A stretch of 41,745 bases of DNA from a bacterium (GCA_030697445.1 JAUYPY010000030.1:1-41745), one strand, 5' to 3'. Numbered from the stretch's first letter, positions 21,552 through 41,745 are shown. Made by a program: numbers and translations. Notes: a model not told the origin generated them from the sequence alone.

Positions 21552-22279
21552 CCCAAAAATCTGAATAGATGACTTCCCACGGTATTGTCCATATTTTACC
21601 ATACGGAGTCCACCGTTATAAACCAAGTTTTTTGTTCTGGCACACCAGCTCCTACACTGAATTGCCAAAACGGCTGAATACCATTGCTGGTATGGCACCC
21701 CGATGTGTTAAGGTGCCGAACTCCGCCGCCGATTAGGACTCTTAGGCGGAACTAGCCTGTTATCCCCGGAGTAGCTTTTAGCAGATGATCTCTGGCCGCG
21801 TCTAACGCGTACCATCGGTTCACTATGCCCCGCTTTCGCGTCTGCTCGGCTCTGACGCCTCACAGTTAAGCCAGCTTTTGCCATTGCACTATCGGCACGG
21901 TTTCCATTCGCGCCTAGCTGACCTTGATGGGCTCCTTTGTTACTTTTTAAAAGGATAGCGCCCCACTAAAACTGCCCCCCAGGTACTGTCTCTCGCGCGT
22001 TTGGCGCGCGAGGTTAGCATGCATATTTTTAAAGAGCGGTGTTTCATCGACGGATCCATCCCGCCCGAGAGCGGGACTTCAAATCCTACCGCCTACGCTA
22101 CGCATCAAAAAAATGCAGGCAATACCAAGATACAGTAAAGCTTCCGGGGTCTTTTCGTCTAACTGCAGGTAACCGGCATCTTCACCGGTATTGTATTTTC
22201 ACCGAGCGAGTCTCCGAGACAGTTGCCCAGACGTGACACTATTCAACGCGCGGGAACTTACCCCGCAAGGAATTGCGCT

Positions 22280-22486
22280 CTTCTATTCCTATAAAGAAGG
22301 ACTATGTCTTCATCCTTCGACTTCGTTCAGGATAAATCCCGAAGAAATCTAGGGAGCGCGGCGTATAGTCTCTTGGAGCCGCGTGTACGCTTTGCATTAC
22401 TGCAAAGTAAGGTAGCTTTTGCGTTTTCAACATCGGCATACAATCGTCCCAATCCTTTCCGAAACGAATTTTACTTCGCATCGGAA
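22280..22486 (-). mobile_element. ORF-less group I intron (207 nt) at the CCUAAGGU|AGCG site (about E. coli 1931)
   Basis: The 5' exon ends CGTCCTAAGGT, the intron ends ..AATAGAAG, and the 3' exon starts AGCGCAATTCCTTGCGGGGTAAGTTCC. GAAGACATAGTCC motif. Confidence 0.7.
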
Positions 22487-23970
22487 ACCTTAGGACGATT
22501 ATAGTTATCGCCGACATTCACCAGGGCTTATATCAGTCACCACTCCATCTTGCGACAAAGCAACGCCGATATTTGACCTTCTGGCATTGGTCAAGTGTCA
22601 CCCCCTATACATCCTCTTACGAGTTCGCAGGGAGCTGTGTTTTTGATAAACAGTCGCCAGGCAGACTTTAGTTGTAGCCCCTCTTGCGAGGGGCAAGCAA
22701 TATCCCTAAGTTACTGCTGCTTTTTTGCCGAGTTCCTTGGAGACCTCTCACTCGTTCGCCTTACTCTACTCGAGCTGACCACCTGTGTCGGTTTGCGGTA
22801 CGGTCGCGTCGCGTTTAATTTTAGAAGTTTTTCTTGAAAGACGGCTCCTTCAGATTTGCGATGGCCGAAGCCAACACATTTTCACAACGCTTGGAAATCG
22901 CATTGAAGCGAGGACTCCGGATTTTCCTGGAATCCTTCCTTATGTTGCAAACGACAAATCCAATAATGCGCCTGAAGTACTCATCTTCGTCACTTCGTCA
23001 AAACGCGCCGCGGTCACGGAATATTAACCGTGTGTCCATCGCCTCCGGCGTTCGCCATCGGCTAAGGCCCGACTAACCCTCCTCTGACAATCATTGAGGA
23101 GGAAACCTCGGTCTTTCGGCGTGCGGGTTTCTCGCCCGCATTGTGGTTACTTGTGCCAACATTCTTACTTCGCAACGCTCCACCGTGGCTCACGCCTTCG
23201 GCTTCACTGCAGATGCGAATACTCTCCTACCGCGCTCCGACTTTCTTGCGAAAGTCGGAGCACCCTCAGTTTCGGTACCATGCTTTAGCCCCGATCATCT
23301 TCGGTGCGGAATCTCTCGATGAGTGAGCTGTTACGCTTTCTTTAAATGATGGCTGCTTCTAAGCCTACATCCTCACTGTTTGAGAAATACCACTTCCTTA
23401 CGATGCACTGAGCATGGATTTAGGGACCTTAACTGGAGATCCGGGCTCTTCCCCTTTTGACCGGTGGAGCTTAGCCCCCACGGTCTAACTGCTGCGCTTT
23501 AACTTTTGGTATTCGGAGTTTGATAGGTTGAGCGGTCTTTCGACCTGTCCCGACCTTCCAGTGCTCTACCCCCAAAAGGAACACGCAACGCTAACCCTAA
23601 AGCTATTTCGGAGAGAACCAGCTATTACCAAATTCGATTAGCTTTTCACTCCTTGCCACAAGTCATCGCAGAGTATTGCACAGCTCTAGCGTTCGGGCCT
23701 CCCTTCGACTTTCGTCGAAGTTCACCCTGCTCATGGCAAGCTCATCTGGCTTCGGGTCCCAAAGAGAGAGCGCGTCCGCCTTGCGGCGGACTACGCGCTA
23801 TTAACACTCGCTTTCGCTACGCCTCCGCCCTTGTTTAAGGGGCTTAGACAAGCTCTCTCCCTGGACTCGTTGGCTCATTCTTCAATAGGCACGCTACAAC
23901 GGAGCAAGCTCCGCCGTAACTCTTTGTAAGCATACGGTTTCAGGTCTATTTCACCGCCCTCATCGGGCTG

Positions 23971-24010
<40 letters not shown>

Positions 24011-24549
24011 TTGAAAGATATTTAGCCTTGCCGGTTAGTTCCGGCGGATTCCCCCAAGGTATTCGTGTCTTGAGGTACTCAAGGACAAAGACAAGAAAGA
24101 TTGTTTGTTTTCGTGTACGGGACTATCACCCTCTGGGGTGCTTCTTTCCAGAAGCTTCCACTAACAAACGGTTTTGTAACTTTCCTCTCGATAAATCGAG
24201 ACATCTCTGCCTTACAACTGCACTTCGTTCTTGCGAACAAAATACTCTAGGCTTCTGCGCGTTCGCTCGCCGCTACTGACGCAATACCAATTGGTTTCTT
24301 TTCCTCCGGGTACTGAAATGTTTTACTTCCCCGGGTGTGCTCTCCGACTTTCGTCGGAGTCTCGCGGTTTTACTCGCGAGGGGTTTCCCCATTCGGACAT
24401 CTTCGGATCAAAGGTTGCTCGGCACCTCCCCGAAGCGTATCGCCGCTACGCCGCGTCCTTCATCGCTCTTTCAAGCCAAGGCATCCACCGTACGCCCTTG
24501 TTTCCTATCCGGAAACATGTAACCCTGCCCCGACTTTGCGTCGGGGCAT

Positions 24550-27816: not shown

Positions 27817-28410
27817 ATGTTCATCGAACAAAAATTTAATATTCCTCCCCTCAATGGAATCTCGCAGAAGACGGTAGAGGAACACTTGAAACTCTACGCG
27901 GGATATGTGAAGCATGCGAATTTGGTGTTGGAAAAAATAAAAGAGTTGAAACATGATGTCGAAAAGAATGCATATGCGCTTGCCGAAGTGAATCGTCGTT
28001 TCGGATTTGAGTTTAATGGGATGCGTAATCACGAGGTGTACTTCAGGAGTTTGGAGGGCGGTTCGACTACGCTCACCGCAAGTGGACCAGTTGCAAAAGC
28101 AATTGCCGAACGCTGGGGTTCGTTTGAAGTATGGCTCACGGAGTTCAAAGCAATAGCATTGACGCGCGGCATCGGCTGGGCGATGTTGTACTATGATCCT
28201 GTTTCAAAACAATTCTTGAATGCATGGGTAGACGAACAACACTTGGGGCAACTCCAGAACTGTTCGCTCATTCTTGGCCTTGATATGTGGGAACATTCTT
28301 TTGTATATGACTACCAACCTTCTGGTAAAAAACAATATGTTGAGGACTTTTTTGTAAACCTCAATTGGGAAGTGGTTGAGCAGAATTTTGCGGCCGCAAC
28401 TTCCAAATGA
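27817..28410 (+). CDS. Fe/Mn-family superoxide dismutase
   Basis: 197 aa. DMWEHSF (the D-x-W-E-H metal-ligand motif), NGMRNHEVYF and GWAMLYYD. TATAAT lies 8 nt upstream of the ATG. Confidence 0.75.
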   Translation: MFIEQKFNIPPLNGISQKTVEEHLKLYAGYVKHANLVLEKIKELKHDVEKNAYALAEVNRRFGFEFNGMRNHEVYFRSLEGGSTTLTASGPVAKAIAERWGSFEVWLTEFKAIALTRGIGWAMLYYDPVSKQFLNAWVDEQHLGQLQNCSLILGLDMWEHSFVYDYQPSGKKQYVEDFFVNLNWEVVEQNFAAATSK

Positions 28411-29818
28411 CAAAACCGTACGCGCCGTACCAAAACACGACTAGCCAGAGCGGAAACGAAGCGAGCGCGATTGCCGCGAACGGCAATCGCACGAACCATT
28501 CAACAATCGCGAGCTCGTATGCGAGGAGCGCGTAGGCAATCCATGCAAACGGCAGTGCGAATATAGTCGTAATGAACCCGACAATTCCCGCCAGAAATCC
28601 GAAAAGCATCGTTAGCGGAATCGCCGCGAGAATAAGAAGATTGACCGGAAGCGATACTAGGGAAAGAATTCCTGTTTTGTATAAAAGAAAAGGAAGAACA
28701 AAGAGTTGGGTTGCAATGGTCGCCACCACAATTTCGCGTATTCTGTATTTTTCCGTTATCCACTTCACTTTCGGCTCAATCAAAGGTGAGAAATAAATCA
28801 GCCCGACCGTTGCGAGAAAAGAAAGTTGAAATGAAACATCAAAGACCAAAATCTTCGGGTTGTGAAGCAACATAAAAAAGCCGGCGACGAGAAGTGCCCG
28901 TGTCACGGCATACATTCTTCCTGTTGAACGCGCTAGAATTACGAGGAGCGCCATAATCGTCGCGCGTACAACTGTTGCAGATGCGCCGACCATCAGCGCG
29001 AAGAGAATCATCGCTCCAGCCGCAACGACAAGCCGGAGGTCTTTGCGCAGGCGCGAGAAGAGCCATTCAATAAAGTAGGCGATAATCGTGATGTTGTAGC
29101 CGGACAGCACGACAATGTGAATCACCCCCACTGTTCGGAAATCGTCAAGAAGTTTTTTCCCGAGCGACTGCTTTGCACCAACCACGAGCCCGCCCAAGAG
29201 CGCCGCGTGAGGTTGCGGTATAAGGCGATTTATATTACCGATAAATGCGCGTTTGAACGCGAACAATTTTTCTACGACCCAATTCCCTTCTCCATGCGCA
29301 ATAAGTTCAATGTGTGGCTTAAACATTTCATAATAAATGCCGTCTTTCGCCAGATGCGACACATAATCCACTTCGCGGAGCGTTGTTTCATCCGTAAAGT
29401 TTCTTGGCTTCTCTAATTTTCCGTTGATTGAAACGCGGTCGCCGTATGCATACTTCGGTTCTCTATTTGTGGTAACAAGAATCTTTGTTTGTTCTATCGC
29501 AACAATAAGTCGAGTTACGCTCTCGCGCTCGTCCGGCTCGTCAACAACGAACCCATCAATCTCAATTGATTGTCCTATATGAACATCAAGCGCGCTTCGC
29601 GGACCATTCCTATCTGCAAGGTCATAGCGAAACATCCCAAGCCCCGCGGCAAAAAGAAAAATGGCAAAAAGTACTGTTTTGCGTTCTGCCAAAAATAAAA
29701 TTCCTCCGAGCAAAACAAAAAACAGCGCGAAACCTGCACCAAAATTAACAAACGACCGCAGAAAAATCCCAGCGACAAACCCACCTAATACTGCATACAA
29801 ATATGAATCACGAGACAT
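28361..29818 (-). CDS. comEC: ComEC/Rec2 DNA-uptake channel, N-terminal OB (DUF4131) plus competence TM domain only
   Basis: 485 aa, multi-TM. HIVVLSGYNITII and GASATVVRATIMA motifs. Lacks the MBL domain. 50-nt convergent overlap with the SOD gene. Confidence 0.8.
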   Translation of the reverse strand: MSRDSYLYAVLGGFVAGIFLRSFVNFGAGFALFFVLLGGILFLAERKTVLFAIFLFAAGLGMFRYDLADRNGPRSALDVHIGQSIEIDGFVVDEPDERESVTRLIVAIEQTKILVTTNREPKYAYGDRVSINGKLEKPRNFTDETTLREVDYVSHLAKDGIYYEMFKPHIELIAHGEGNWVVEKLFAFKRAFIGNINRLIPQPHAALLGGLVVGAKQSLGKKLLDDFRTVGVIHIVVLSGYNITIIAYFIEWLFSRLRKDLRLVVAAGAMILFALMVGASATVVRATIMALLVILARSTGRMYAVTRALLVAGFFMLLHNPKILVFDVSFQLSFLATVGLIYFSPLIEPKVKWITEKYRIREIVVATIATQLFVLPFLLYKTGILSLVSLPVNLLILAAIPLTMLFGFLAGIVGFITTIFALPFAWIAYALLAYELAIVEWFVRLPFAAIALASFPLWLVVFWYGAYGFVIWKLRPQNSAQPLPN

Positions 29819-30314
29819 TCAAGATATTTCTTATGCTGTAATTCTCAAGAATACCAGAATAGAGTTTTAGTGGTTCATTATCGGCAAATGCGGTTGCGAT
29901 TTCATCGCACCGCTCGTTACCCACGATTCCCTTGTGTCCATCAATTCTTTTCCATTGAATTTCTTTTCCATCTGCGGCAGAAAGCAGCCGTTCCCACAAA
30001 TCCTGATTTTCCACTGGCTTTTTGTTTGCGGTTTTCCAACCATTTCTTTGCCACCTTTCTATCCACTCGGTCATACCAAGCACAACATAATTAGAATCCG
30101 CATAAAGTGTGATATTTTTGGCTTCTGTTCCCGAAAGATATTCAAGGGAGGCAATCGCGCCCATAAGTTCCATTCTATTATTCGTTGTGTGAGCTTCTCT
30201 TCCGCCAAGCTCGGAAACTTTATCGCCAAAGATAACAATCGCGCCGAACCCGCCCGGTCCAGGATTCCCCCGCGCCGCCCCGTCGGTGAAGATGACTATT
30301 GATTTATGATTCAT
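29808..30314 (-). CDS. rnhA: ribonuclease HI
   Basis: 168 aa. IFTDGAARGNPGPGGFG, TNNRMEL, DSNYV and GHKGIVGNERCDEIA motifs. Confidence 0.85.
   Translation of the reverse strand: MNHKSIVIFTDGAARGNPGPGGFGAIVIFGDKVSELGGREAHTTNNRMELMGAIASLEYLSGTEAKNITLYADSNYVVLGMTEWIERWQRNGWKTANKKPVENQDLWERLLSAADGKEIQWKRIDGHKGIVGNERCDEIATAFADNEPLKLYSGILENYSIRNILNVS
29833..29860. promoter_or_regulatory. degenerate fifth copy of the 28-nt palindromic site (15 nt upstream of comEC ATG)
   Basis: atgctgtaattctcaagaataccagaat. 21 of 28 positions match the consensus; the right arm is well conserved and the left arm is degraded. Confidence 0.4.
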
Positions 30315-30338
30315 AGCGATATAATTATAGCACCCGCC

Positions 30339-32099
30339 TCATCGGCGGGTCGCCGAAGAGGCGACAATATCAACAATCCGGAGCCGAAGCTCGGGGCGGT
30401 TTCCGAACGACGAGTTTTCAAGGTGCGCGAGCAGATTTATGTTCTGCCCGTGCGCAATGCCGCCAAAATCCTCCGGTTTTGCAACAAACTTCACCGCAGA
30501 CCCGCGCTCGCCGGTTGATTTCACAAACATAAGTTTCAGGTGCTGTCTTTCTTTCCCAATTAATTCGACTGCGCCGACCGCAACCTGCTCAAACAAAAAA
30601 AGCGGCTTCGGATTCCCGACCCCGAACGGCGCGAGTTTGACAATGTCGTTCCACAGAACCGAATTCACTTCATCTATACTGATGCGCGCATCTACTGCGT
30701 ATCGCGGCTCCGCTTCGCGGCTCAAACCTGCCCGCCGATTGGCAGGCGGGCGCACTTTCTCGTATGCGCGCTCCAATTCGCTTTCTAATAAATGCACTTT
30801 TTCCAGCACAATAGAAAATCCGCCCGCTTCTTTATGCCCGCCAAAATCAGAAAACACGGAGCGCGCTTCCTGCATTAAGAGCGACAAATCAACGCTTCCG
30901 TCCGAGCGGCACGAACCTTTCAGGTTCGTGCCGCCTTCCCTCCCCCACACAAAAACGGGCTTTTGATAATCTGCAACTAGTGTATTCGCCACCAAGCCAA
31001 GAAGCGCGGGTCTCCAGTTCGGGTTCCCCGCAACCACTACTTTCGGCGCCTGCCCTGAACTTGTTGAAGGGTGCTGTTCCGCTACAATCTTACGCACTTC
31101 TTTCACAAGCGACGCCACAGTTCCCTTGCGCTCATTATTAATATGATTCAAATGTTTCGCGAGCGTTCCTGCTTCCGCCGCGTCAGTCGTTGCCAACAAA
31201 CGAAAGGCATCCATCGGCACGCCCATGCGCGATGCGGCGTTTATGCGCGGTGTAATCATAAAACCAATATCGTCTTCTGTTAGATCGCCCCTATTTATGC
31301 GAAGTTCTTGCAACAACTGCCCAAGCCCAATGCGCGGTGATCGGCGCAATACCTTCAATCCGAAATGCGCAAAAACGCGATTTTCTCCGGTAAGCGGTAC
31401 CATATCGGAAAGCGTTGCAATACCGACCATATCTAACAACCACTTTTCCCAACCCGACGAGAGTCGGGTTGCACCGAGCGAAGTCGAGGGGCTCAATGAT
31501 AACTTCTTCACCAGCGCCTGTACCAGCTTAAAGACCACACCGCTTCCGCAGAGCATTTTTTCAGGATAGTGACAGTCCGATTGTTTTGGATTTAAAATTG
31601 CAAACGCCGGTGGAACAGATTCGCCCAACAAGTGGTGGTCGGTGATAATCACCTCAAGTCCGAGTTCGTTCGCATGCGCAACTTCTTCCGCATCAGTAAT
31701 ACCGCAGTCTATTGTAATGAGAAGCCGCGCGCCGCGCTTTGCCAGTTCCTCAATCGCGCCATTGTTTAATCCAAAACCCTCACCGTGCCGGTCTGGAATA
31801 TAATTCTCAAAATTCACATATCCTATTTTCTTAAAAAAATCGTGGAGTACGACTGCACCCGGAATTCCATCCGCATCATAGTCGCTAAAAATCGCAATTC
31901 GTTCGTTATTCTGAATCGCCCGCAAAATTCGCTCCACCACCTTCTCCATATTTTTCATCAAAAACGGGTCATGCGTATGTTTTTCATAATCAGGATTTAA
32001 AAACTTCTCTGTATCTTCTTGTGATTCAATCCCACGATGAAAAAGCAAATGCTCAACAAGATTTTCTTTCTTTCTTTCCCGCACCGCATAGTTTTTCAT
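30339..32099 (-). CDS. recJ: single-stranded-DNA-specific exonuclease RecJ
   Basis: 586 aa. DHH motifs IFSDYDADGI, ITIDCG and ITDHH, and DHHA1 GGHKEAGG. Confidence 0.9.
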   Translation of the reverse strand: MKNYAVRERKKENLVEHLLFHRGIESQEDTEKFLNPDYEKHTHDPFLMKNMEKVVERILRAIQNNERIAIFSDYDADGIPGAVVLHDFFKKIGYVNFENYIPDRHGEGFGLNNGAIEELAKRGARLLITIDCGITDAEEVAHANELGLEVIITDHHLLGESVPPAFAILNPKQSDCHYPEKMLCGSGVVFKLVQALVKKLSLSPSTSLGATRLSSGWEKWLLDMVGIATLSDMVPLTGENRVFAHFGLKVLRRSPRIGLGQLLQELRINRGDLTEDDIGFMITPRINAASRMGVPMDAFRLLATTDAAEAGTLAKHLNHINNERKGTVASLVKEVRKIVAEQHPSTSSGQAPKVVVAGNPNWRPALLGLVANTLVADYQKPVFVWGREGGTNLKGSCRSDGSVDLSLLMQEARSVFSDFGGHKEAGGFSIVLEKVHLLESELERAYEKVRPPANRRAGLSREAEPRYAVDARISIDEVNSVLWNDIVKLAPFGVGNPKPLFLFEQVAVGAVELIGKERQHLKLMFVKSTGERGSAVKFVAKPEDFGGIAHGQNINLLAHLENSSFGNRPELRLRIVDIVASSATRR

Positions 32100-32126
32100 T
32101 CGGACAGTTTAGCATATACTGTATGA

Positions 32127-32540
32127 ATGACTTCCTGCATTTTCTGCAAAATTATTGCGAAAGGAGAAATACCTTCAACAGAAGTGTATGAAGACGACAA
32201 TGTGTACGCATTTCTAGACAACAGCCCATCAAGCATCGGCCATACCCTTGTGGTGCCTAAAAAACATTACGAAAACCTTTTTGATATTCCGGATGCAGAG
32301 CTCGGCATACTCGGCGCGCGCGTGAAAAAAGTTGCGCGCGCCGTAAAGGACGCGCTCAAGGCCGACGGCATCAACATTTCTATGAATAATGGCCGCGCAG
32401 CGGGGCAAGTGGTTTTTCACGCTCACATTCACATCATTCCACGATTTAACGATGATATTTTTTCACACGGAAAAGAGCGTAAACAATATCGTGACGGCGA
32501 AATGGTTGAGATTGCCTCCAAAATCCGGAAATCCTTCTAA
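32127..32540 (+). CDS. HIT-family (histidine triad) protein
   Basis: 137 aa with the HAHIHIIP triad. TATACT lies 6 nt upstream of the ATG. Confidence 0.85.
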   Translation: MTSCIFCKIIAKGEIPSTEVYEDDNVYAFLDNSPSSIGHTLVVPKKHYENLFDIPDAELGILGARVKKVARAVKDALKADGINISMNNGRAAGQVVFHAHIHIIPRFNDDIFSHGKERKQYRDGEMVEIASKIRKSF

Positions 32541-32543
32541 CTT

Positions 32544-32573
32544 AGCATTAAGATACGGCCGTATCTTAATGCT
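32544..32573. terminator. perfect 30-nt palindrome between convergent HIT and pgk genes
   Basis: agcattaagatacgg / ccgtatcttaatgct. No clear U-run. Confidence 0.45.
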
Positions 32574-32577
32574 GAAA

Positions 32578-33651
32578 TCATTTTTGCAGTGCTTCAATTC
32601 CCGGAAGCGTACCGGTAGCCAAAAATTCAAGCATCGCGCCGCCGCCCGTTGAGACAAACGAAAACTTGTCGTGGATGCCGAGCCGAGCAATCGCGGCGAG
32701 TGTGTCGCCGCCTCCGACAATCGTTTCTGCGCCGCTTTCGGCAAGCGCGCGCGCCACTCCTTCCGTGCCTGCAGTAAAACCGCGCTCGTATTCTCCAAGT
32801 GGCCCGTTCCACACTATCAACTTCGCCTCGCGCGCGCGCGCGCGAATGTCGGCAACGGTTCTCTCTCCCGCGTCCACAATTCTATCCTCGCTTCGCACGG
32901 CATCTTGTGGCGCACATAATTTTGAGTTATGCAACAAAACGCTCGGAAAAGCCGTCGCGGAAACAGATGAACTACCCACCGGCTCGCCACGCGCCTTAAG
33001 TACATCATTTGCAAGCACCCCTCCGATATATACCGTATCGGCAATAGAAAGAAATTTCTCAAGAAGCGGTAATTTTGTTTCCGTCTTTGCGCCTCCGAGT
33101 ATAAACAAAAACGGGTGCGCTGGAGAAAATGCTTTTGAGAGATTCTGCACTTCTTCTTCAAAAAGAAATCCTGCGTAATGGGGCAGAAACTTCGGTACGC
33201 CGACCACCGACGCATACGCGCGATGCGAGGCGGAAAATGCTTCGTTTACATACACATCCGCAAGCGATGCAAGTTTTTTTGCAAATGCTTCTTCGTTTTC
33301 TTTTTCGCCTTTTAATTGGCGGATGTTCTCCAATAAAACAAACGAGCCATTCTCCGTTTTTTCAAGCGCGGTTTTTGTTTCTTTAGTTGTTTTTGCAAAA
33401 ATGACTGGATACTGCTTCTTCAATTCTTCATACACCGGAACGAGCGAGTCATTTTCATTGGTTCTGTGCGATACAAGAAGCGTGCGTGCGCCGTTTTCTG
33501 CCAAAAAATCAAGTGTTTTTTTGCTGCGTGTAATGCGGTAGTCATCAACCATCTTTCCACCCTGTATCGGCACATTCAAATCAATTGCCAAAAATACGCG
33601 TTTCCCGCGTAGGTCTACGCACTCCCGAATCGTCTTAAAATTAAGCGTCAT
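32578..33651 (-). CDS. pgk: phosphoglycerate kinase
   Basis: From the ATG at 33651: MTLNFKTIRECVDLRGKRVFLAIDLNVP... The C-terminus reads STGGGAMLEFL. The first 88 codons of the track ORF overlap tpiA and are rejected. Confidence 0.85.
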   Translation of the reverse strand: MTLNFKTIRECVDLRGKRVFLAIDLNVPIQGGKMVDDYRITRSKKTLDFLAENGARTLLVSHRTNENDSLVPVYEELKKQYPVIFAKTTKETKTALEKTENGSFVLLENIRQLKGEKENEEAFAKKLASLADVYVNEAFSASHRAYASVVGVPKFLPHYAGFLFEEEVQNLSKAFSPAHPFLFILGGAKTETKLPLLEKFLSIADTVYIGGVLANDVLKARGEPVGSSSVSATAFPSVLLHNSKLCAPQDAVRSEDRIVDAGERTVADIRARAREAKLIVWNGPLGEYERGFTAGTEGVARALAESGAETIVGGGDTLAAIARLGIHDKFSFVSTGGGAMLEFLATGTLPGIEALQK

Positions 33652-34405
33652 TGGCAATTTGTATAATCCACGCGAACGCCTCGGCATCCAAGCTTTCGTG
33701 CCCCACGAGAAATCCGGAAATGTCACCGTCGCGCAAAAGCGCTCCGGCATTTTCCGGACCCACGCTCCCGCCGTACAAAATGGGAACCGCAACGCCTTCC
33801 TCACCAAACATATCAGCCATAACTTTGCGGATAAAGATTGTGGTCTCGCGCACGATCGCGGGCGACGCGGCATCGCGCCAGTTCTTACTGATCGCCCACA
33901 AGGGTTCATACGCAATCACGATATCCGATAAAAATCGGCGCTGGACTTTTGAAAACGACGCCTTCATCTGCTCGCGCAACACGCCAAAAAAATCACCATT
34001 TTCATCACGCGCGCGTTCTCCTATGCACACAAGCGCTGACAAGCCCTCACGCACAACCGCTTGCGCCTTTCGCGACACCATATCATCTGTTTCCCATCGC
34101 GCGCGACGCTCCGAGTGCCCGACGATTGAAAGCGTTACGCCAATGTCTTTCAGCATTTCCGGAGACACTTCACCGGTGTGCGGCCCACCGTTTCGCCAAA
34201 ACGCGTCTTGGGAGCCAAGCGTAATAACGCCATTTGAAAGACGCGAAAAAAGCGGCACAAACGGGAACGGCGGACAAATCGTGACGGAGACCCGCCGCGC
34301 TTGGGTTGCGGCGCGGCGGGTTGCGAGAAAAAGCGCACGCGCCTCCGCCGCCGTCCCCGGGTTCATCTTCCAATTCGCGATGATCAACTTTTTACCATTT
34401 TTCAT
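33641..34405 (-). CDS. tpiA: triosephosphate isomerase
   Basis: 254 aa. IIANWKMN, VGHSERR and YEPLWAI motifs. Confidence 0.9.
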   Translation of the reverse strand: MKNGKKLIIANWKMNPGTAAEARALFLATRRAATQARRVSVTICPPFPFVPLFSRLSNGVITLGSQDAFWRNGGPHTGEVSPEMLKDIGVTLSIVGHSERRARWETDDMVSRKAQAVVREGLSALVCIGERARDENGDFFGVLREQMKASFSKVQRRFLSDIVIAYEPLWAISKNWRDAASPAIVRETTIFIRKVMADMFGEEGVAVPILYGGSVGPENAGALLRDGDISGFLVGHESLDAEAFAWIIQIANDA

Positions 34406-35408
34406 TTCGTCTAGTATACAACATTTCTTTTATTTTAGATGCTGTACGGAATCCTTTACAGTGCTCCAATAATCCAAGATATGACGGTAGATTTATACGG
34501 TTCACCCGCTTCAGCATCCTTTTTCTGGTTCGCGTCCGCAGTACCCGATAATGCGGAAGAGAAACATATCCAAGAAAATCAGTTCCTTGTCGCAGTTTCC
34601 GTAGGGAAACTTTGCGCGGGTGGAGTTCCAGCAAGAGTTTGTCGCGCAAAAACATCTGAATGCGTGCAATCAACCACATCAATGCTGCACGGCTTTTATC
34701 CAAAATCACAAAATCATCGCAGTAACGAATGTAGTATGGTGCCTTGAGCGTGTGCTTTACAAACTGGTCCAGTACATTTAGATAGATGTTGGCGAAAATC
34801 TGACTGGTTACATTGCCGAGCGGCAGACCTTTGTTCGGTGCGACCTCAAAAGAAGAGATGATGCGGTGAATAAGAGTGAGGAGATTTTGGTCGGTGATTC
34901 TGTGTGAAATGCTAGAAAAAAGAATGCGGTGGTCAATGGAATCAAAAAACTTCCTGATGTCGCACTTCAAGACAAATGCGGAATTGGTATAGTTTGTAGA
35001 TACTTTTCGCGCAAAGACCTCAAATTGTTTTACGCCTGCGTGTGTGCCCTTACGTTCTCTAGAAGCATATGAATCGTGTATGAATGTATTATCAAATATC
35101 TGATACAATTCTTGATATACAACTTGAAATAGAACGCGGTCTCGAACGCTCGGGACATGAATGATGCGTGGTTTTGGGTCGGCAATGGGCTGGCGTTCAT
35201 AGGGGTCGTTTGTCCACACGCCAAAAGCAAGCTGTTCGTGGAGAGAAAAGAGGTTTTCTTCCAAATACAACTCAAACCTTGCAAATTCACTATCGGTTCG
35301 CTTTCCTTTGGAAAACCTCCGCCATGCGCGAAGTAGATTTTCCGGAGAAATTAGAGCATAAAAATCACTATTATGACGCCCCCCCCCCGACCGTACTCCA
35401 TCCGTCAT
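34392..35408 (-). CDS. DGR-type reverse transcriptase
   Basis: 338 aa. LGNVTSQIFANIYL (the I/LGxxxSQ signature of DGR RTs), YIRYCDDFVIL (YxDD), and an N-terminal ENLLRAWRRFSKGKR motif. Confidence 0.9.
   Translation of the reverse strand: MTDGVRSGGGRHNSDFYALISPENLLRAWRRFSKGKRTDSEFARFELYLEENLFSLHEQLAFGVWTNDPYERQPIADPKPRIIHVPSVRDRVLFQVVYQELYQIFDNTFIHDSYASRERKGTHAGVKQFEVFARKVSTNYTNSAFVLKCDIRKFFDSIDHRILFSSISHRITDQNLLTLIHRIISSFEVAPNKGLPLGNVTSQIFANIYLNVLDQFVKHTLKAPYYIRYCDDFVILDKSRAALMWLIARIQMFLRDKLLLELHPRKVSLRKLRQGTDFLGYVSLPHYRVLRTRTRKRMLKRVNRINLPSYLGLLEHCKGFRTASKIKEMLYTRRNEKW
35379..35388 (-). repeat. G10 homopolymer (C10 on plus strand) in RT codons 7-10
   Basis: gacgCCCCCCCCCCgacc, encoding S-G-G-G-R. 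Confidence 0.95.
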
Positions 35409-35409
35409 T

Positions 35410-35742
35410 TTGAAGATTCGTCTGTTGCATAAAGAGATTTACGATATTGGGAAGAAATTGCCGAAGGGGGATAAATTGGGGATTCACACGACTGTTGAAA
35501 AATACACTCTAGAACTACTCGCCACAGCCATCGCGGCATCCCTTACTTCAGGAAGAGAGAAAATCCCCTTACTGAAAAAAGCGCGCATTCAAGTTCACCA
35601 AGTAATTCACCTCATCCGAACAGAATATGAACTTGGTATTGTTATGGAGAAAATATACCTGCGCCTGTCCGCACAACTAGTTGAAATTGCAAAGATGTTG
35701 AATGGTTGGATAACCTACGAAACGAACAAAGAGTCGCGATGA
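35410..35742 (+). CDS. avd: Avd-like four-helix-bundle protein (23S rRNA IVS protein family), TTG start
   Basis: 110 aa. KEIYDIGKKLPKGDKLGIHTTVEKYTLELLATAIAAS...EIAKMLNGWI matches the four-helix-bundle/Avd pattern. Opposite strand to RT, TR and VR. Confidence 0.7.
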   Translation: MKIRLLHKEIYDIGKKLPKGDKLGIHTTVEKYTLELLATAIAASLTSGREKIPLLKKARIQVHQVIHLIRTEYELGIVMEKIYLRLSAQLVEIAKMLNGWITYETNKESR

Positions 35743-35750
35743 CTCTTTGT
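35726..35750 (-). other. perfect 10-bp hairpin 12 nt 3' of the TR
   Basis: Arms acaaagagtc and gactctttgt, loop gcgat. Overlaps the avd stop codon. Confidence 0.7.
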
Positions 35751-35761
35751 GCGAGAAATTT

Positions 35762-35875
35762 CTGAACGGGCGCCGTTATTCGGGTTGCAGTTGTCGGCAT
35801 AGTTCCAGTTGAGGTAGACCTTGCGATTGTCCGGATTCCAGTTGCCGTTCGCAACCTTGTCGTCGCGGAGACGGT
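35762..35875 (-). repeat. DGR template repeat (TR), 114 nt
   Basis: Aligns without gaps to 36142-36255. In the VR frame it reads RLRDDKVANGNWNPDNRKVYLNWNYADNCNPNNGARS, which is rich in AAC/Asn codons. Confidence 0.9.
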
Positions 35876-36050
35876 ACCTCGTTATGCCGCGCTTCGTCCG
35901 TATCACCGAGAACCTTTTTCAAGATTCTCTGTGTTTCCTCGTGGTAGAACGAGCGTAGTATAAAGACGTGGCAAGCAATTTCTTTGTGTGGCAAACTGTT
36001 ATCGCGCCAGAGGCGGACCAATTTCACAGCCAGTTTTAGTATAACAAAAG

Positions 36051-36089
36051 CCCCGACTTTGTCATCCGTAAGCGGAGACAAAATCGGGG
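36051..36089 (-). terminator. terminator hairpin after the DGR target gene
   Basis: Arms ccccgactttgtc and gacaaaatcgggg with one wobble. On the minus strand the hairpin is followed by CTTTTGTTAT. Confidence 0.6.
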
Positions 36090-36115
36090 CGGGGTAAGGA
36101 TTAAGGGAAGAAGGG

Positions 36116-36916
36116 TTAAGACCTAAGGGGAACCTTCTTTGCTGAACGGGCGCCGTAAGACGGGTTGCAGCTGCCGGCATAGCTCCAGTAGAGGTAGACC
36201 TTGCGATAGCCCGGATGCCAGTAGCCGTACGCAACCTCGCCGCCGCGGAGACGGTCTTCTGGGAACCAAGTCCATGTCTCTGGATCTAGATGCTCTCCGG
36301 TAACGACATGATGCATGGTGTCTGCATCGCACCAGCCGAAGAGACCGAGCCAGAGTTTGTTCTGGATTTTGACGAGTTGGTCTGGACTTTTGGCGTAGTC
36401 GCTGAGGGTGTCGTCGTCTGGTTTGACAGAACGATTGATGAGGTAGAGTTCGGGCTCTTTCTGGCCTTTGCTGTTTGTGTACTTCATCACATCTGTCTCT
36501 TCGTATGGCTTGTTTTCTCCCATTTTCAGTTTCCATTCAATCGCATGGCGATTGGTGGCGCCTGCAGGACGGAAGGCGGGCATGAGGGTGGTGCTTGCGA
36601 GTTCTTCGTCCGTAAGGGAGAAGAGGTCTCGTAGTATCACTAGTTCTCCTATGAAGAACCTGTGGAGTTCCTCTCGCGCTTTAAGCCAGTCGGCGAGGGT
36701 GTGACCGGTGGAGCGGAGGGTGGGGATGTGCGGGGATTCCTCAATCTGCGTCTTCTCCTGTTTAGGAACCCAGCATGGTTCCTGTCTGTTGAACTTATTG
36801 AGTTCAGTGAGTACCTCTTGACCCTTTTCTCCGTTTAATTTCACGAAGAGGTCAGAAATCGGTCCCTGCAAGAGTACACGGAGCGATTCGTTGTTGCCGA
36901 GCATGCCGGTTTGCAT
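36116..36916 (-). CDS. DGR variable (target) protein, VR at C-terminus; no signal peptide seen
   Basis: 266 aa. The C-terminus reads RLRGGEVAYGYWHPGYRKVYLYWSYAGSCNPSYGARSAKKVPLRS. GAAAGGA lies 8 nt upstream of the ATG. Confidence 0.85.
   Translation of the reverse strand: MQTGMLGNNESLRVLLQGPISDLFVKLNGEKGQEVLTELNKFNRQEPCWVPKQEKTQIEESPHIPTLRSTGHTLADWLKAREELHRFFIGELVILRDLFSLTDEELASTTLMPAFRPAGATNRHAIEWKLKMGENKPYEETDVMKYTNSKGQKEPELYLINRSVKPDDDTLSDYAKSPDQLVKIQNKLWLGLFGWCDADTMHHVVTGEHLDPETWTWFPEDRLRGGEVAYGYWHPGYRKVYLYWSYAGSCNPSYGARSAKKVPLRS
36142..36255 (-). repeat. DGR variable repeat (VR), 114 nt
   Basis: 15 mismatches to the TR, all at TR positions that are A on the minus strand (plus-strand T changed to a, c or g). 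None of the 82 non-A positions differs. Confidence 0.9.
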
Positions 36917-36993: not shown

Positions 36994-37021
36994 AGTGTAG
37001 CACGAGACGATTTATAAGTCA
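36994..37021 (-). promoter_or_regulatory. sigma70-type promoter (TTGACT-N16-TACACT) for the DGR target gene
   Basis: On the minus strand, TTGACT is at 37021-37016 and TACACT at 36999-36994. Leader of about 85 nt. Confidence 0.5.
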
Positions 37022-37038
37022 ATAGCACTGTAAATGAA

Positions 37039-38331
37039 TTATTCAACCTCCTTCCAACTATCAATCGTGTACCCGCCAGACGGGCCGCTGGTAAAAATGA
37101 GGTTCGCCAAGCCGGTTTCGTACTTTACTTCCGCGCTGTTCTTGAGCCGAATGCGATATCCGCTCGCCTCTTTAACATTGACCGAATCCTGAATCAGCAC
37201 TTCGCCGTGCGGCGCGTACACGAGCAACGCGCCGTCAACTGAGTTTTTAAGGTCAATTGCGGTTTCGCTTCCACCTTGTTCGGCGCTTTTATTTTGCGAA
37301 ATCATAAGGACATACGACCCCGTCGAGCCAGAACCTTGAAATACCGCAGAGTTCTGCAGTTCAATTTTACTGCTGGTCGTCTGATTTGTCGGCTTATCGG
37401 CAATAACAGGGACGCTCGTGTTTCCAAGCGAAGACGAAACGCGAACGATTGCGGTGTTTTTAATTGTAATATTTCCAGAAACCCATAATGCGCCGCCAAG
37501 CGTAACCACGGGGTCGTTGGTAATTTCCAAATCGCAGTTTATTTTCTTCGGTCCAATGGTCGTATTGATGTCAATCTTGTATGGACATGGGGCAGACACG
37601 GTGCCGCCTGCAAGCGCATCCGCTTCCCAGTCCGCAATCTGCGCATCGGAAATGGCGAGCGATGAGGTCGCTTGGTCGGCACTCCCTGGGTGAAGCGCGC
37701 CGTCTACAGTCGTCCCTGAAATTGTTTGGTAGTACGCATCGCCGTCTATATCCGAGTCCCGTATCGTATGCGCGTATGCGGTACTCGTTGCATGCACCCT
37801 GTCAATCAACCCCGCTGGTCCCGCAGACACAACGGTTCCTTTTACTACATTTCTATTCTCTCCGGTCACCGGACCGTTTGAATACACATTTCCCAAAATG
37901 CTCGTGGTATTCAGCAGGTCAATCCCGCCCGCCCCTGCCTGCATTCCATAATTGAACGAGGCACCAGCGCCTTGCGCGAGATGTACGCGCGATTTTCGCG
38001 TAAAACGCGCCCCGCTCGCTGATGTATTTACTTCCTGTCCTCCGGACACCGCCGTTATTATTGCGGTTGCTGTTACTCCGCCAACAGTAAGCGATTCCGA
38101 ATCGCCTACAGCCAGTCCTTTTATTTTCCGATACGCCACATCTTCAGACGCAGATGAAATCGTGTACAAACCTTGCCGCGCGTCCGCAAACGCGCGCGCC
38201 GAGGCGGCGCGCCGCAAAGCGGGGCCAGCCGCCGCGGCGGAAATCGCCGCGGAGGCGGCAAGAAAGAACAAGCAGGCAATAATCATCACTTGCCCACGAT
38301 TAGTATGAATTGCGTAGAATGGTTGTTGCAT
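37039..38331 (-). CDS. large pilus-associated protein with PilX-like N-terminal hydrophobic segment
   Basis: NRGQVMIIACLFFLAASAAIS, then a long Gly/Ser/Thr-rich, beta-rich region. Last gene of the pilus operon. The start is uncertain (38331 or 38286). Confidence 0.6.
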   Translation of the reverse strand: MQQPFYAIHTNRGQVMIIACLFFLAASAAISAAAAGPALRRAASARAFADARQGLYTISSASEDVAYRKIKGLAVGDSESLTVGGVTATAIITAVSGGQEVNTSASGARFTRKSRVHLAQGAGASFNYGMQAGAGGIDLLNTTSILGNVYSNGPVTGENRNVVKGTVVSAGPAGLIDRVHATSTAYAHTIRDSDIDGDAYYQTISGTTVDGALHPGSADQATSSLAISDAQIADWEADALAGGTVSAPCPYKIDINTTIGPKKINCDLEITNDPVVTLGGALWVSGNITIKNTAIVRVSSSLGNTSVPVIADKPTNQTTSSKIELQNSAVFQGSGSTGSYVLMISQNKSAEQGGSETAIDLKNSVDGALLVYAPHGEVLIQDSVNVKEASGYRIRLKNSAEVKYETGLANLIFTSGPSGGYTIDSWKEVE

Positions 38332-38908
38332 AAAATTTTTTGGTGATAGATGCGGAACCGACACCGCTTTGGATCGACAACTCAATTTTCACCGCCTCCG
38401 ACTTTCCCGTTGCAATGCGCCGCGCAACAAAACTTGAGACGGCAACCTTGCTTCCGGTAAGCGCCCCACTGTCCGTGCTATTTTCTTTTATACGCAAAGC
38501 CGAGCCGGAAACAAAAAACTCAACCGTGCGCGCGGCGCCCGCCTCATCAGTCGTATTAAACACCAACTGGCTTGGATTCACGCCAAGAATACTTGTTCCA
38601 ATATCAACCCTTTCCGAACCGCGCGCTTCGCGCGTGATGCGCTCCAATACCACCGCGCCATCGCGTTCAATGCGCGATAGGTTTGCAACTCCTCCATACG
38701 CGCGCGAAAGCCCGAGCGCCGTTCCGACAATCATTACAAGCGCGGTCGCAAACACCGCGAGGTACACGAGGAGCTCTACAATTGAAAAACCGAAAGCGAA
38801 ACAAAAACCCTTTTTCAAAACTGGGGTGGGGGCGTGGCCATTCCATTCTGATGGAATGGGGGGGAAAGTTTTGGAAAAGGGTTTTTGTGAAGCACTCATA
38901 TTATTCAA
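38300..38908 (-). CDS. prepilin-type N-terminal cleavage/methylation domain protein (pseudopilin)
   Basis: KKGFCFAFGFSIVELLVYLAVFATA class III signal-like segment. Confidence 0.65.
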   Translation of the reverse strand: MNNMSASQKPFSKTFPPIPSEWNGHAPTPVLKKGFCFAFGFSIVELLVYLAVFATALVMIVGTALGLSRAYGGVANLSRIERDGAVVLERITREARGSERVDIGTSILGVNPSQLVFNTTDEAGAARTVEFFVSGSALRIKENSTDSGALTGSKVAVSSFVARRIATGKSEAVKIELSIQSGVGSASITKKFYATTILRNSY

Positions 38909-39380
38909 AAAGATTCATGAGGTATGTTTCCATCACCCGCTCACCTGCTTGTGGAGTGGTCGTCGCCCACGAGACGCGCACGGTAACTTTTCTCGCGCCA
39001 GCATCAACCGCTTTTGCATCGGTAGAAGTGCTCATCACAATATCTTTGTCCGAATTGCGGCGATACACATCATTCAACACGAATGTCCTCCGGAAAACAC
39101 CGTCAATCATTTGCGGCGTTGCAGTGGTTACCCACTTCGTGCCGTCAAAATTCAAGTAGTACTCCGAACCAACGGCGAGCGATGCAAAGTTGCTCCATCC
39201 TGTATCACGAATCGCGGTTATCGCCTCAATACCCTCCTCCGCAAGCGCCGCGCCTTGCACCTGTTCAAGCGTTCCCCTTCCGTGCCGCGCGGCAACTTGA
39301 AACGCCGTCAGCACCGACACAAACGACGCAAGCAGCACCGCCACCGCCACCAAAATCTCGACCAAAGAAAATCCTTTCAT
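38901..39380 (-). CDS. prepilin-type pseudopilin
   Basis: MKGFSLVEILVAVAVLL (G|FSLVE cleavage/methylation motif). Confidence 0.75.
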   Translation of the reverse strand: MKGFSLVEILVAVAVLLASFVSVLTAFQVAARHGRGTLEQVQGAALAEEGIEAITAIRDTGWSNFASLAVGSEYYLNFDGTKWVTTATPQMIDGVFRRTFVLNDVYRRNSDKDIVMSTSTDAKAVDAGARKVTVRVSWATTTPQAGERVMETYLMNLFE

Positions 39381-39392
39381 CTATTTATTATA

Positions 39393-39845
39393 TCACTCGC
39401 TCTCCACCGTACCGAGTGTGTTTACACTCACTGTTTTTGATACTGAAGGGTTCCCGCGCACCAAGAGCGTTATTGAGCCGGCTGATACTGCGGCACCCGT
39501 AAGCCGTTTAAATATGACTTCATTTCCGGAAAAAGAAATGGTGGAAATAGTTATGCGGCGCGCGAGCATTTCTGTTTTATTATCCGAACTGCCCGCTTGA
39601 TAGGTCGGCGCGCGGAAAAGAACCGCGCGGTCTGATTCAAAATGCACGCCGTACGCAGAACTATTTTCACCCGCGAGCGTCTTGCTCCTCGCCTCTGTGA
39701 TAAGCGCCGCCACGCGCGCCGCGCCGGAATCCAATTCGCGGCGCGCCGCGTAAGACGAAAACGAAAACCACCCCGCGCCCACCACTAGCGCGAGAATCGC
39801 AACACTCACCACCACTTCCAAAAGAGTAAATCCGCGATATTTCAT
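39393..39845 (-). CDS. prepilin-type pseudopilin (GspH/FimT-like)
   Basis: MKYRGFTLLEVVVSVAILALVV (G|FTLLE). Confidence 0.75.
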   Translation of the reverse strand: MKYRGFTLLEVVVSVAILALVVGAGWFSFSSYAARRELDSGAARVAALITEARSKTLAGENSSAYGVHFESDRAVLFRAPTYQAGSSDNKTEMLARRITISTISFSGNEVIFKRLTGAAVSAGSITLLVRGNPSVSKTVSVNTLGTVESE

Positions 39846-39848
39846 ATA

Positions 39849-40919
39849 TTAGACATTATTCATCAAAGTATACATCGGCAAAATCATAGAATAGGCGAAG
39901 AAGCCCGCCGCTATGCCGACGGCGACCATGAGCACCGGCTCTACCACCGCGGAAAGGTTTTTTGTTTTTTGTTCCACTTCCGCCTCGTAAAACAGCGCGG
40001 TTTCCTTGAGCATCTCACCGAGCTTGCCCGTCTCCTCGCCGGACGCGACCATTTCCGAAAAATACGGCTGGTACAACTTACCCGCTTCCGCAAACGCGGA
40101 TGAAAGCGTCTTTCCTTTTTCAACAACAGCACGCGCATTCATAATCACCTTATGGTAATACGAGTTTTGCACCACATCAGCGACTACCCCGAGCGAGGCG
40201 ACAATCGGCACGCCGGCGGAAGTGAGGGACCCTAGAGTGCGTGCAGTGCGTGCGGAATTGAGTTCTACGACAATCTCACGGAGCTCCGGCGTATGGAGCG
40301 CACAAAAATCAAGTACGCGCCCACCAAACGCCGTGCGAAAAAATATAAGCAAGACGGCGGCGACAAATAACACAGAGGAGAGGAACAGAACGCTGTGATT
40401 TTGAAGAGCGTCGCTCGCGTAAACAAGCGCACGCGTGCTCAAGGGCAATGCAACGCCAAACTCCTTAAAAGTAGAAGAAAGTTCTGGCACCACATAGATG
40501 AGCATCAAAATAGCGATTGCAATCATCACTAGAATAATAATCGCGGGGTAGATGAGAGCACCGCGAAGTTTCCTGCCGAGCGCATACACTCGGTCTAGTT
40601 GTTCCGCAAGCGAAGCAAACGACTGCGCGAGCGAGCCGCTCTCCTCTCCTGCAGCAACCACCGCCGGAAAGAGAGGCGGAAATACGCGCGGAAATTGCCG
40701 CAAGGCGTCTGAAAGCGCTCTGCCTTTCCGCACCTCGTCTCCGATGGCAGAGAGCGTTTTCTTGAATGATTTATTTCCGCTTTGGCGCACGAGCACTTCA
40801 AGCGCGCGTGAGAGCGGTAAGCCCGCAGAAAGCATTGCGCCAACATTCCGCGCAAATGCCACCTTCTCGCGCAACGGCACGAACGAAAAAGAAAATAAAT
40901 TTTTGTAAGTAAATTTCAT
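39849..40919 (-). CDS. pilC: type IV pilus / T2SS platform protein (GspF/PilC family)
   Basis: 356 aa. Two T2SSF repeats, including LSAGLPLSRALEVL and ASGEETGKLGEML. TAATG overlap with pilB. Confidence 0.85.
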   Translation of the reverse strand: MKFTYKNLFSFSFVPLREKVAFARNVGAMLSAGLPLSRALEVLVRQSGNKSFKKTLSAIGDEVRKGRALSDALRQFPRVFPPLFPAVVAAGEESGSLAQSFASLAEQLDRVYALGRKLRGALIYPAIIILVMIAIAILMLIYVVPELSSTFKEFGVALPLSTRALVYASDALQNHSVLFLSSVLFVAAVLLIFFRTAFGGRVLDFCALHTPELREIVVELNSARTARTLGSLTSAGVPIVASLGVVADVVQNSYYHKVIMNARAVVEKGKTLSSAFAEAGKLYQPYFSEMVASGEETGKLGEMLKETALFYEAEVEQKTKNLSAVVEPVLMVAVGIAAGFFAYSMILPMYTLMNNV

Positions 40920-41745
40920 TATTCTGATACAACGCGCATCACCTCTTCAATCGTAGTGATGCCTTGTGCGCATTTGAATATTCCATCTTCAAGCATCGTG
41001 AGCATCCCTTCGCTCCGCGCCTGTTTGTCTATATCAGATGTTGTCGCTCCGCGCATCACAAGGTCACGAATGGCGGATGAAATACCCATCACCTCATAAA
41101 TTCCAATTCTGCCTTCGTACCCTTCGGTGCCGTCTGACGCGGTCCGCGGCTTGTAGAACGGCACCTTTTCCCAATGCGTTCCCTTCGGTACGATTTTGTT
41201 TTCAACAAGTGCCGCAAGCGTCTTGTTCAAATCAATACTCTTACCAAGCGCCGCAATGCCCGCTTTGGTTAGAAAATATTTTTCTTTAATACCCGAGAGT
41301 TTGCGCACAAGCCGCTGGGCAATCACTAGATTTACGGTAGACACGAGTAAAAATGGTTCTACTTTCATATCCAAAAGCCGCGGCACCGCTCCCGCCGCGG
41401 AGTTCGTGTGCAGTGTTGAAAGCACCAGGTGCCCCGTGAGCGCGGCGTTAATCGCGAGCGAGGCGGTTTCGTTGTCGCGGATTTCCCCAACCATTACGAT
41501 ATCAGGGTCTTGCCGCACGAGCGTGCGGAGCCCGTCTGCAAAGGTGAGCCCAATTTCGGGCTTCACCTGCGTTTGGTTTACGCGCGCAATTTGATATTCA
41601 ATCGGATCTTCCACGGTGGAAATGTTCACCTCCGGTGTGTTTAAAATATCAATCATTGTATAGAGGGTCGTCGTCTTGCCGCTTCCGGTAGGACCAGTCG
41701 TCAAAAGCATTCCTGTCGTTTGATGGAGCGCTTTGTGCACTTTCT
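40919..41745 (-). CDS. pilB: type IV pilus assembly ATPase (GspE/PilB family), N-terminus outside the window
   Basis: Walker [11 protein letters not shown], Asp box, Walker [13 protein letters not shown] and His box [12 protein letters not shown]. The reading frame is open to the window edge. Confidence 0.9.

Follow-up and report, generated by a model that had tools for sequence, protein, structure and literature searches.

Bacteria of the Candidate Phyla Radiation (CPR, or Patescibacteria) form the taxon that is most enriched in diversity-generating retroelements (DGRs). About 90% of the CPR elements have the order template repeat (TR), avd in reversed orientation, and reverse transcriptase (RT) gene, a type designated architecture B3 (Wu et al. 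2018, PMC5758913), and the CPR elements make up cellular clade 2, the targets of which are as a rule devoid of transmembrane and other conserved domains (Roux et al. 2021, PMC8144416). Here we analyze a stretch of bacterial DNA of 41,745 nucleotides (GCA_030697445.1, JAUYPY010000030.1:1-41745; the window) that very probably carries a chromosomal, structurally intact DGR of this CPR type, arranged as target gene with variable repeat (VR), TR, inverted avd and RT. It resembles the B3 elements in gene order, inversion of avd, host group, cellular location and origin from groundwater-type metagenomes, as well as in having a short, domain-less target without transmembrane segments, a C-terminal VR and adenine-specific differences between TR and VR. 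No defining difference from these elements was found, and the close relatives of the window element stem from Rifle and Hainich-type datasets, which the CPR DGR surveys had also used. Within its host group the element is an ordinary one, another member of a well-described class. A complete DGR had already been proposed for this region from the DNA alone (the sequence-only reading), and this interpretation held, as an RT of the DGR type, an Avd, a TR/VR pair with adenine-only differences, an in-frame VR at the 3' end of the target gene and TR codons rich in AAY are all present.

The DGR of Bordetella phage BPP-1 (mtd-avd-TR-brt) shares with the window an Avd-type protein, a TR of about 115–135 nt with AAC-rich codons, a VR at the 3' end of the target gene, a GC-rich stretch that resembles an IMH site (for initiation of mutagenic homing) and encodes G-A-R, and a hairpin downstream of the VR. 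In contrast to BPP-1, the window has avd inverted and placed between TR and RT. A 140-nt spacer separating TR from RT is missing; the TR is immediately followed by GAAAUUUC and a terminator-like hairpin, with a large conserved RNA structure on the 5' side of the TR, and the Rfam motif RT-10, which covers the BPP-1 spacer, gave no match in the window. Furthermore, the host is a cell and not a phage, and the target, which is no tail fibre, lacks a significant sequence or fold match with Mtd. In other chromosomal DGRs, the diversified C-terminal VR likewise belongs to a cellular protein, one of the C-type-lectin kind (Legionella LdtA, Treponema TvpA and Thermus TaqVP). A scaffold as in these proteins is compatible with the predicted helix plus four-strand module of the window target and with a weak preference for C-type lectin (CLec) folds in Foldseek comparisons, although TvpA and TaqVP were absent among the top 50 listed PDB matches. 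Whereas these targets bear lipoprotein or secretion signals, or the signature of formylglycine-generating enzyme (FGE)-sulfatase/DUF1566 proteins, the window target has neither.

Repeats, reverse transcriptase and Avd

The core of the cassette consists of the following features, given by position in the window.

36116–36916, minus strand: target (variable protein) gene, an open reading frame (ORF) for 266 aa, with the VR ending 8 codons before the stop
36142–36255, minus strand: VR, encoding target residues ~221–258 of 266 (alignment)
36142–36156, minus strand: IMH-like, GC-rich 3' end of the VR, identical to that of the TR (alignment)
35762–35875, minus strand: TR, 114 nt with 32 adenines (repeat search and alignment)
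35762–35776, minus strand: IMH*-like, GC-rich, invariant 3' end of the TR, ACGGCGCCCGUUCAG (alignment)
35410–35742, plus strand: avd (accessory variability determinant), 110 aa, TTG start (NCBIfam DivGenRetAVD, Pfam bAvd)
34392–35408, minus strand: DGR RT gene, 338 aa, with LGNVTSQ (motif 4) and YCDD (ORF; Pfam RVT_1, 8e-23)

The evidence that carries the assignment lies in the two repeats. The sequence-only reading had aligned TR 35762–35875 with VR 36142–36255 over 114 nt without gaps and had counted 15 mismatches, all at adenines, which the computed realignment reproduced exactly. Every mismatch is a plus-strand T in the TR, i.e. an A on the minus (coding) strand. On this strand there are 32 A and 82 non-A positions in the TR, of which 15 and 0, respectively, differ in the VR; the non-adenine substitutions to which that reading had pointed as evidence against a DGR are thus absent (0/82). 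The chance that 15 of 15 mismatches land on the 32 TR adenines is P = 2.7e-10. The substitutions from TR to VR are A>G (7), A>T (6) and A>C (2). A repeat search that was independent of the earlier alignment returned a single long direct repeat in the region (35759–35875/36139–36255), and the homology may be 3 nt longer, to 35759, adding one more A-type mismatch. No third TR/VR copy was detected in the window when both strands were scanned for matches at the TR non-A positions.

The Asn-rich translations of TR and VR that had been quoted earlier were recovered without change in the frame of the 266-aa ORF, with the VR in frame at the extreme 3' end (residues 221–258). In this frame, codon positions 1 and 2 hold 31 of the 32 TR adenines. 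The TR has 18 variable codons (7 AAC, 3 AAT, 4 GAC, 2 AAG, TAC and TAT), and stop codons can be reached by mutation solely from the two AAG codons. The theoretical repertoire amounts to up to ~4e17 protein variants. The 15-nt GC-rich end is the same in TR and VR and free of mutations, and the flanks diverge right after it, where GAAAUUUC follows the TR and CAAAGAAGG follows the VR.

The RT encoded at 34392–35408 contains both LGNVTSQ and YCDDF, as had been read from the DNA. Motif 4 of the form [I/L]GxxxSQ (SQ) is diagnostic of RTs of the DGR clade. In comparisons with solved structures the best match was 8ub7 (3.8e-38), the sequence of which is that of Brt of BPP-1, with the best group II intron RT (8e-25) and retron-type RTs behind it. 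Alignment with the annotated BPP-1 brt product gave 32% identity over 294 residues (E 3e-45). The segment GLPLGNVTSQIFANIY aligns on GIPIGSLTSQLFANVY of Brt, with LGNVTSQ on IGSLTSQ, and YCDD aligns on YMDD. These similarities suggest that the RT belongs to the DGR clade and is of the Brt type. Group II intron and retron RTs have the same general RT fold, and group II enzymes are the next-best structural relatives, but the window RT lacks a maturase/X or endonuclease domain, and it is not accompanied by an intron or msr/msd RNA; it is found next to Avd, the TR and a target that carries a VR.

The NCBIfam results could be taken to mean something else, namely that the TR is a partial duplication of the target 3' end that diverged in the ordinary way, next to an unrelated RT of the retron, group II or defence type. 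The best-scoring models for the RT are indeed group II RT/maturase (1.4e-45) and Drt/retron families, and no DGR RT model is among the NCBIfam matches. However, these matches are far under the curated cut-offs (156 vs 300 bits for TIGR04416, 70 vs 200 bits for another model), and the same holds for all retron, Drt and Abi matches; Rfam scans revealed no group II intron, retron or other RNA family. All 15 mismatches are confined to adenines (P = 2.7e-10), drift would not be expected to produce the codon-position bias and the enrichment in AAY, about 50 loci show the same pattern (see below), and the closest characterized RT is Brt. A duplication with ordinary divergence is therefore effectively refuted already, and we give it next to no chance.

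An Avd-like ORF had been noticed as well, and this part stood, since the product of 35410–35742 matches the bAvd family; what had been omitted is that the gene is on the plus strand and thus inverted relative to RT, TR and target. The matches extend over the full length of the protein (DivGenRetAVD 3.5e-10, Pfam bAvd 6e-8), and all 24 of 24 Avd relatives from syntenic loci match Pfam bAvd, with 4e-17 as the best value. The start codons of avd and RT are placed back to back (35406–35412), 1 nt apart, with 1–23 nt in relatives. As this leaves no intergenic room for promoters or ribosome-binding sites, the expression signals of each gene must lie inside the other. At its other end the RT gene overlaps the start of tpiA (33641–34405) by 14 nt (34392–34405), with pgk next; because of this overlap the RT may be co-transcribed with these glycolytic housekeeping genes.

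Host, related loci and natural variation

The named homologues of the target and the RT all come from metagenome-assembled genomes (MAGs) classified as Taylorbacteria, Parcubacteria, Paceibacterota or Patescibacteria, which points to a Patescibacteria/CPR bacterium as the host and to a cellular element. The contig, itself part of a MAG, carries 16S, 23S and 5S rRNA genes, tpiA, pgk, recJ, comEC and type IV pilus genes. The DGR cassette is located directly downstream of the type IV pilus set (a PilB-like ATPase, PilC and N-methyl pilin-like proteins), separated from it by a gene for a 448-aa protein of unassigned function that also adjoins the target homologue in related locus L011. The comEC and recJ genes are found 2–6 kb away on the other side of the DGR (regions examined: 37039–41740 and 28361–32099).

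Many DGRs are phage-borne, and distant relatives of the window RT (all <40% identity) occur in 166 phage records, among them ANMV-1, Vibrio VP585, Bordetella phages and crAss-like phages, which we take to be recognized DGR carriers. It may thus be asked whether the cassette is part of a prophage or another mobile element, with a receptor-binding protein of a phage as its target, as in BPP-1. Against this, no phage genes are present among the flanking genes examined (28361–34405 and 37039–41740), the cassette sits between type IV pilus genes and tpiA/pgk on a contig with rRNA genes, and the RT stop codon overlaps the tpiA start. Related loci are also set among housekeeping genes (ruvX, ruvA and rpsT, as well as pilM). 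The 266-aa soluble target has no tail-fibre features and gave no significant match in BFVD, and the DGRs of CPR bacteria have been described as cellular (Roux et al. 2021, PMC8144416). A phage-borne origin of the cassette is consequently very improbable.

Two observations concern the contig and its gene content. The rRNA genes are unlinked and all on the minus strand (9734–11651, 19754–19865 and 21560–24511); the 16S gene, with tRNA-Ile and tRNA-Leu downstream, is about 10 kb from the 23S gene, and protein-sized ORFs lie between 23S and 5S. Unlinked rRNA genes are typical of CPR genomes. A link between the DGR and type IV pili was considered and rejected as not general, since pilM was found in 7 loci (downstream in L001 and L004) and other pilus genes in the window only.

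Related loci were gathered both via relatives of the target and via relatives of the RT. In every related locus with a detected avd, the order is the same: VR, ~360–420 nt, TR, inverted avd and RT. TR/VR mismatches are nearly all at TR adenines in about 50 independent loci (e.g. 17/17, 24/24, 25/25 and 22/22). Across 31 target homologues, the entropy is 2.65 bits in the columns that correspond to TR codons with adenines and 1.06 bits in the other VR columns (P = 1.4e-6). The variation is also visible at short distance. Within clusters of relatives at 90% identity, 13 of 13 variable columns in cluster 2 and 13 of 14 in cluster 6 are inside the VR, and the near-identical relatives in these clusters come from different samples.

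Several relatives deviate from the common pattern. In three related loci of Taylorbacteria RIFCSP MAGs (L001, L002 and L009, at ~6186–6510), avd is split over two reading frames, and four variants of the target (protein cluster of P0009) have the same VR and differ at 35 columns elsewhere; these loci probably represent a silenced DGR, i.e. a natural negative control. Another locus (L010, 1375–3438) is a decaying relative, with 8 of 15 TR/VR mismatches at adenines and 7 at non-adenine positions; its RT, which gives a split alignment, contains a G11 run and an in-frame TAG following DVI. In some relatives a second VR is located downstream of the RT, or a VR is present there only (L038, L041, L044); in L038 the TR is at 2008–2117 and the VRs are at 1643–1752 and 4252–4360. 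Locus L013 has a separate adenine-biased repeat pair (17/17) at 7224–7682, away from the target homologue. These extra or downstream VRs imply that multi-target and trans arrangements occur in the clade.

The silent relatives raise the question whether the window copy was itself recently silenced, or is rarely active, in which case the TR/VR differences would be a fossil of the last homing event. The window target is alone in its protein cluster, relatives with split avd and invariant VR or with a decayed RT do exist, and cellular DGRs were reported to be less active than phage DGRs (PMC8632793). On the other hand, the 0/82 non-adenine differences indicate that there was no drift since the last homing. 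The RT, Avd and target ORFs are intact, with an in-frame ATG ahead of the G10 run near the RT 5' end, and the leader, the motif and the hairpins described in the next section fit the conserved pattern. Since it combines the absence of non-adenine differences with intact ORFs, the window copy looks functional; silencing is an unlikely explanation, and the element is probably active at present.

RNA around the template repeat and the G-run

The expression of the target gene and of the TR is associated with the following elements.

36994–37022, minus strand: promoter-like site upstream of the target, TTGACT-17-TG-TACACT (consensus match only)
36045–36088, minus strand: target terminator, a strong GC-rich hairpin with U tract, 54 nt after the VR (fold z = -4.7)
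36038–36065, minus strand: promoter-like site for the TR RNA, located inside the target terminator, ATGACA-16-TG-TATACT (consensus match only)
35876–36031, minus strand: structured 5' leader of the TR RNA, ~156 nt (20-locus alignment A5, RNAalifold)
36031–35990, minus strand: three-part stem-loop in the leader (RNAalifold)
35974–35962 with 35895–35884, minus strand: long-range helix in the leader (RNAalifold)
35953–35938 and 35933–35904, minus strand: two internal hairpins in the leader (RNAalifold)
35755–35762, minus strand: motif GAARUYUY, GAAAUUUC, at the TR 3' boundary (in 40 of 43 related loci)
35726–35750, no strand assigned: 10-bp hairpin ACAAAGAGUC-AUCGC-GACUCUUUGU directly after the TR, with A-rich 5' and U-rich 3' flanks
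35379–35388, minus strand: uninterrupted G10 run encoding the Gly run of SGGGRH at the RT N-terminus (residues 8–10; locus comparison)

The statement that the 266-aa ORF has a promoter and a terminator of its own agrees with the first two of these elements, a consensus-type site at 37022–36994 and the hairpin at 36088–36045. An equivalent hairpin is present 45–70 nt past the VR in 27 related loci, and it is possibly the counterpart of the hairpin/cruciform element of other DGRs. Within the terminator, the promoter-like site for the TR RNA is followed, 7 nt past the -10 box, by a conserved RNA start (GGCUGU; GGCUGUGAAAUUGGUC...), and both box and start recur in related loci.

The leader between this start and the TR aligns well over 20 loci, the proteins of which share just 50–70% identity. 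RNAalifold predicts 33 base pairs, of which 22 have compensatory changes. The fraction of paired cells in the alignment is 92.5%, as compared to 37–52% when partners are slid, and 87 cells show double changes against 18–37 in the controls; in 500 shuffles the observed values were never reached. No Rfam family matched the leader, RT-n motifs included, and no description of a 156-nt leader 5' of a TR was found in the literature searched. A putative Avd-binding stem-loop just downstream of the TR was proposed for DGRs that include those of CPR bacteria in a study that covered only 40 nt upstream of the TR (Handa et al., bioRxiv 10.1101/2023.10.23.563531); the leader may therefore be undescribed.

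At the 3' side of the TR, GAAAUUUC is absent after the VR and thus separates donor from recipient. The hairpin that comes next overlaps the stop codon (35740–35742) of the convergent avd gene. All 40 folded loci, i.e. those of the 43 that bear GAARUYUY, have a hairpin at this place with a locus-specific, unrelated stem. It is a candidate for a bidirectional intrinsic terminator, for an Avd-binding stem-loop, or for both.

By homology with the BPP-1 DGR, the following course of events can be envisaged. A non-coding RNA of ~310 nt would start at ~36031 from the promoter inside the target terminator and end at ~35720, comprising the structured 156-nt leader, the 114-nt TR, GAAAUUUC and the hairpin with its U tract. 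A complex of RT and Avd would bind this RNA and reverse-transcribe the TR, with random nucleotides inserted opposite the 32 template adenines. The cDNA would then replace the VR at the 3' end of the gene for the 266-aa target, with the shared GC-rich ACGGCGCCCGTTCAG setting the 3' boundary. As a result, 18 codons would be recoded, positioned on the C-terminal four-strand beta-sheet of a compact soluble protein.

The RT 5' end has an additional feature. At the position of the G10 run, an uninterrupted G7–G12 run is found in 64 non-identical loci, and the protein motif GGGxH is conserved at the RT N-terminus. The share of GGG among Gly codons is 76% in the motif versus 22% in the rest of the same genes, which implies a constraint at the nucleotide level. 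The window RT has an in-frame ATG ahead of the run, but 21 of the 64 loci have no in-frame ATG, GTG or TTG before it. An in-frame start is present in 67% of the loci, and the wrong frames carry a start equally often (67%), so that rescue of the start-less loci by another frame is uninformative. Two loci (L017 and L020) that are 88–92% identical around the run differ by a sole indel in an aligned stretch of ~320 nt, namely G10 versus G8, and through this difference of two G residues the upstream starts lose their frame. A search for an avd promoter on the opposite strand, at a constant distance from the run, was negative, and no mention of such a G tract in DGR papers was found in the literature searched. 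A slippage-based switch, transcriptional slippage, a role in the expression of avd from the other strand, and a homopolymer assembly error are all possible explanations.

Combining these observations, one may tentatively propose that CPR DGRs use a short, self-terminated transcript of ~310 nt with its main structure 5' of the TR, and that the G7–12 run is a slippage-dependent ON/OFF or dosage switch which gates the RT. We consider this proposal as a whole possible but doubtful. If true, an RNA that is structured at its 5' side would imply a different geometry for recruitment of RT and Avd and for cis-priming.

Target protein and implications for CPR bacteria

The target protein (MDP3661560.1, locus tag Q8R17_01800) has 50 close homologues, which belong to Taylorbacteria, Parcubacteria or Patescibacteria where the source states a taxon, and no Pfam domain is present in any of them. 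An exhaustive profile search extended the family to 298 clusters, all assigned to Patescibacteria, with the longest members at most 311 aa; ten remote, shorter relatives from this search also lack a Pfam domain. Searches of Pfam, NCBIfam and PDB sequences with the single protein, 32 family members and the family profile gave no match, in agreement with the earlier remark that the N-terminal ~200 aa resemble nothing recognized. On direct reading of the sequence, no signal peptide and no hydrophobic or transmembrane segment is evident.

An AlphaFold2 model based on the family alignment has a predicted local distance difference test score (pLDDT) of 91. In the model a short, variable N-terminal helical module (~10–43) and a linker precede a compact domain that starts at residue 66 and ends with a long helix (192–206) and four beta-strands (215–262) bearing the VR. 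In a minimal target subfamily of ~170 aa, this helix-plus-sheet module alone is kept. The weak top matches of the model in the PDB, obtained with Foldseek, are mostly CLec-fold proteins (Mtd variants, FGE and CD23). The likeliest, though unproven, reading is that the VR is displayed on a divergent C-type-lectin-like surface for ligand binding.

Two further observations concern the family at large. The N-terminal ~60 residues occur in at least 3 unrelated versions on the same conserved domain (alignment A1), and in P0048 the N-terminal version of the window protein is joined to a very divergent C-terminal domain. Since unrelated N-terminal versions are joined to one conserved domain, swapping of N-terminal modules is suggested by these alignments. 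Residues 108–185 (36364–36594) show a recurrent weak similarity to framework 2–3 of antibody VH/VHH domains (E 0.0025–1), which is probably due to chance, as the confident model has a helix there.

A number of points weigh against the interpretation as an intact, working CPR-type DGR or against parts of it. With 33.6 and 40 bits, the Avd of the window does not reach the curated cut-offs of the two family models (40 and 80 bits, respectively), and its similarity to BPP-1 Avd is not significant, either by single-sequence or by profile comparison. The starts of avd and RT are only 1 nt apart, which leaves no intergenic promoter for the expression of either gene. The priming adenosine of BPP-1 is located in the 140-nt spacer 3' of the TR. 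An RNA that ends at the hairpin after the TR has no such long 3' spacer for priming as in BPP-1, and priming must be different or involve read-through. The target protein cluster has a single member, so that ongoing activity of the window copy is only probable. With regard to the target fold, the sequence-only reading had proposed to predict the structure and look for a C-type lectin fold that displays the variable residues. A confident sheet bearing the VR was indeed predicted, whereas a significant fold match was not obtained: Foldseek gave no match with E <2 in the PDB or <0.6 in BFVD, and hhalign of the target with BPP-1 Mtd returned a probability of 0.3%, with VR aligned on VR and both ending in G-A-R. 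The C-type lectin fold of the target is thus suggested, not established.

As a DGR, the window copy adds little to what is known, since CPR bacteria were already found to be rich in DGRs of the same architecture, with targets of unassigned function. Its value is that of a clean and complete reference example, located on a 41.7-kb chromosomal contig and covered from the promoter through both terminators, together with a target family of ~300 clusters in which the natural variation among near-identical relatives is largely confined to the VR. If the side observations hold, they would bear on how cDNA synthesis is primed without a 3' spacer in the largest cellular group of DGRs and, through the G-run, on how cells restrain a hypermutator. 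The target is compact and soluble, its structure is predicted with confidence, and it offers a tractable way into the question of what these episymbiotic bacteria diversify.

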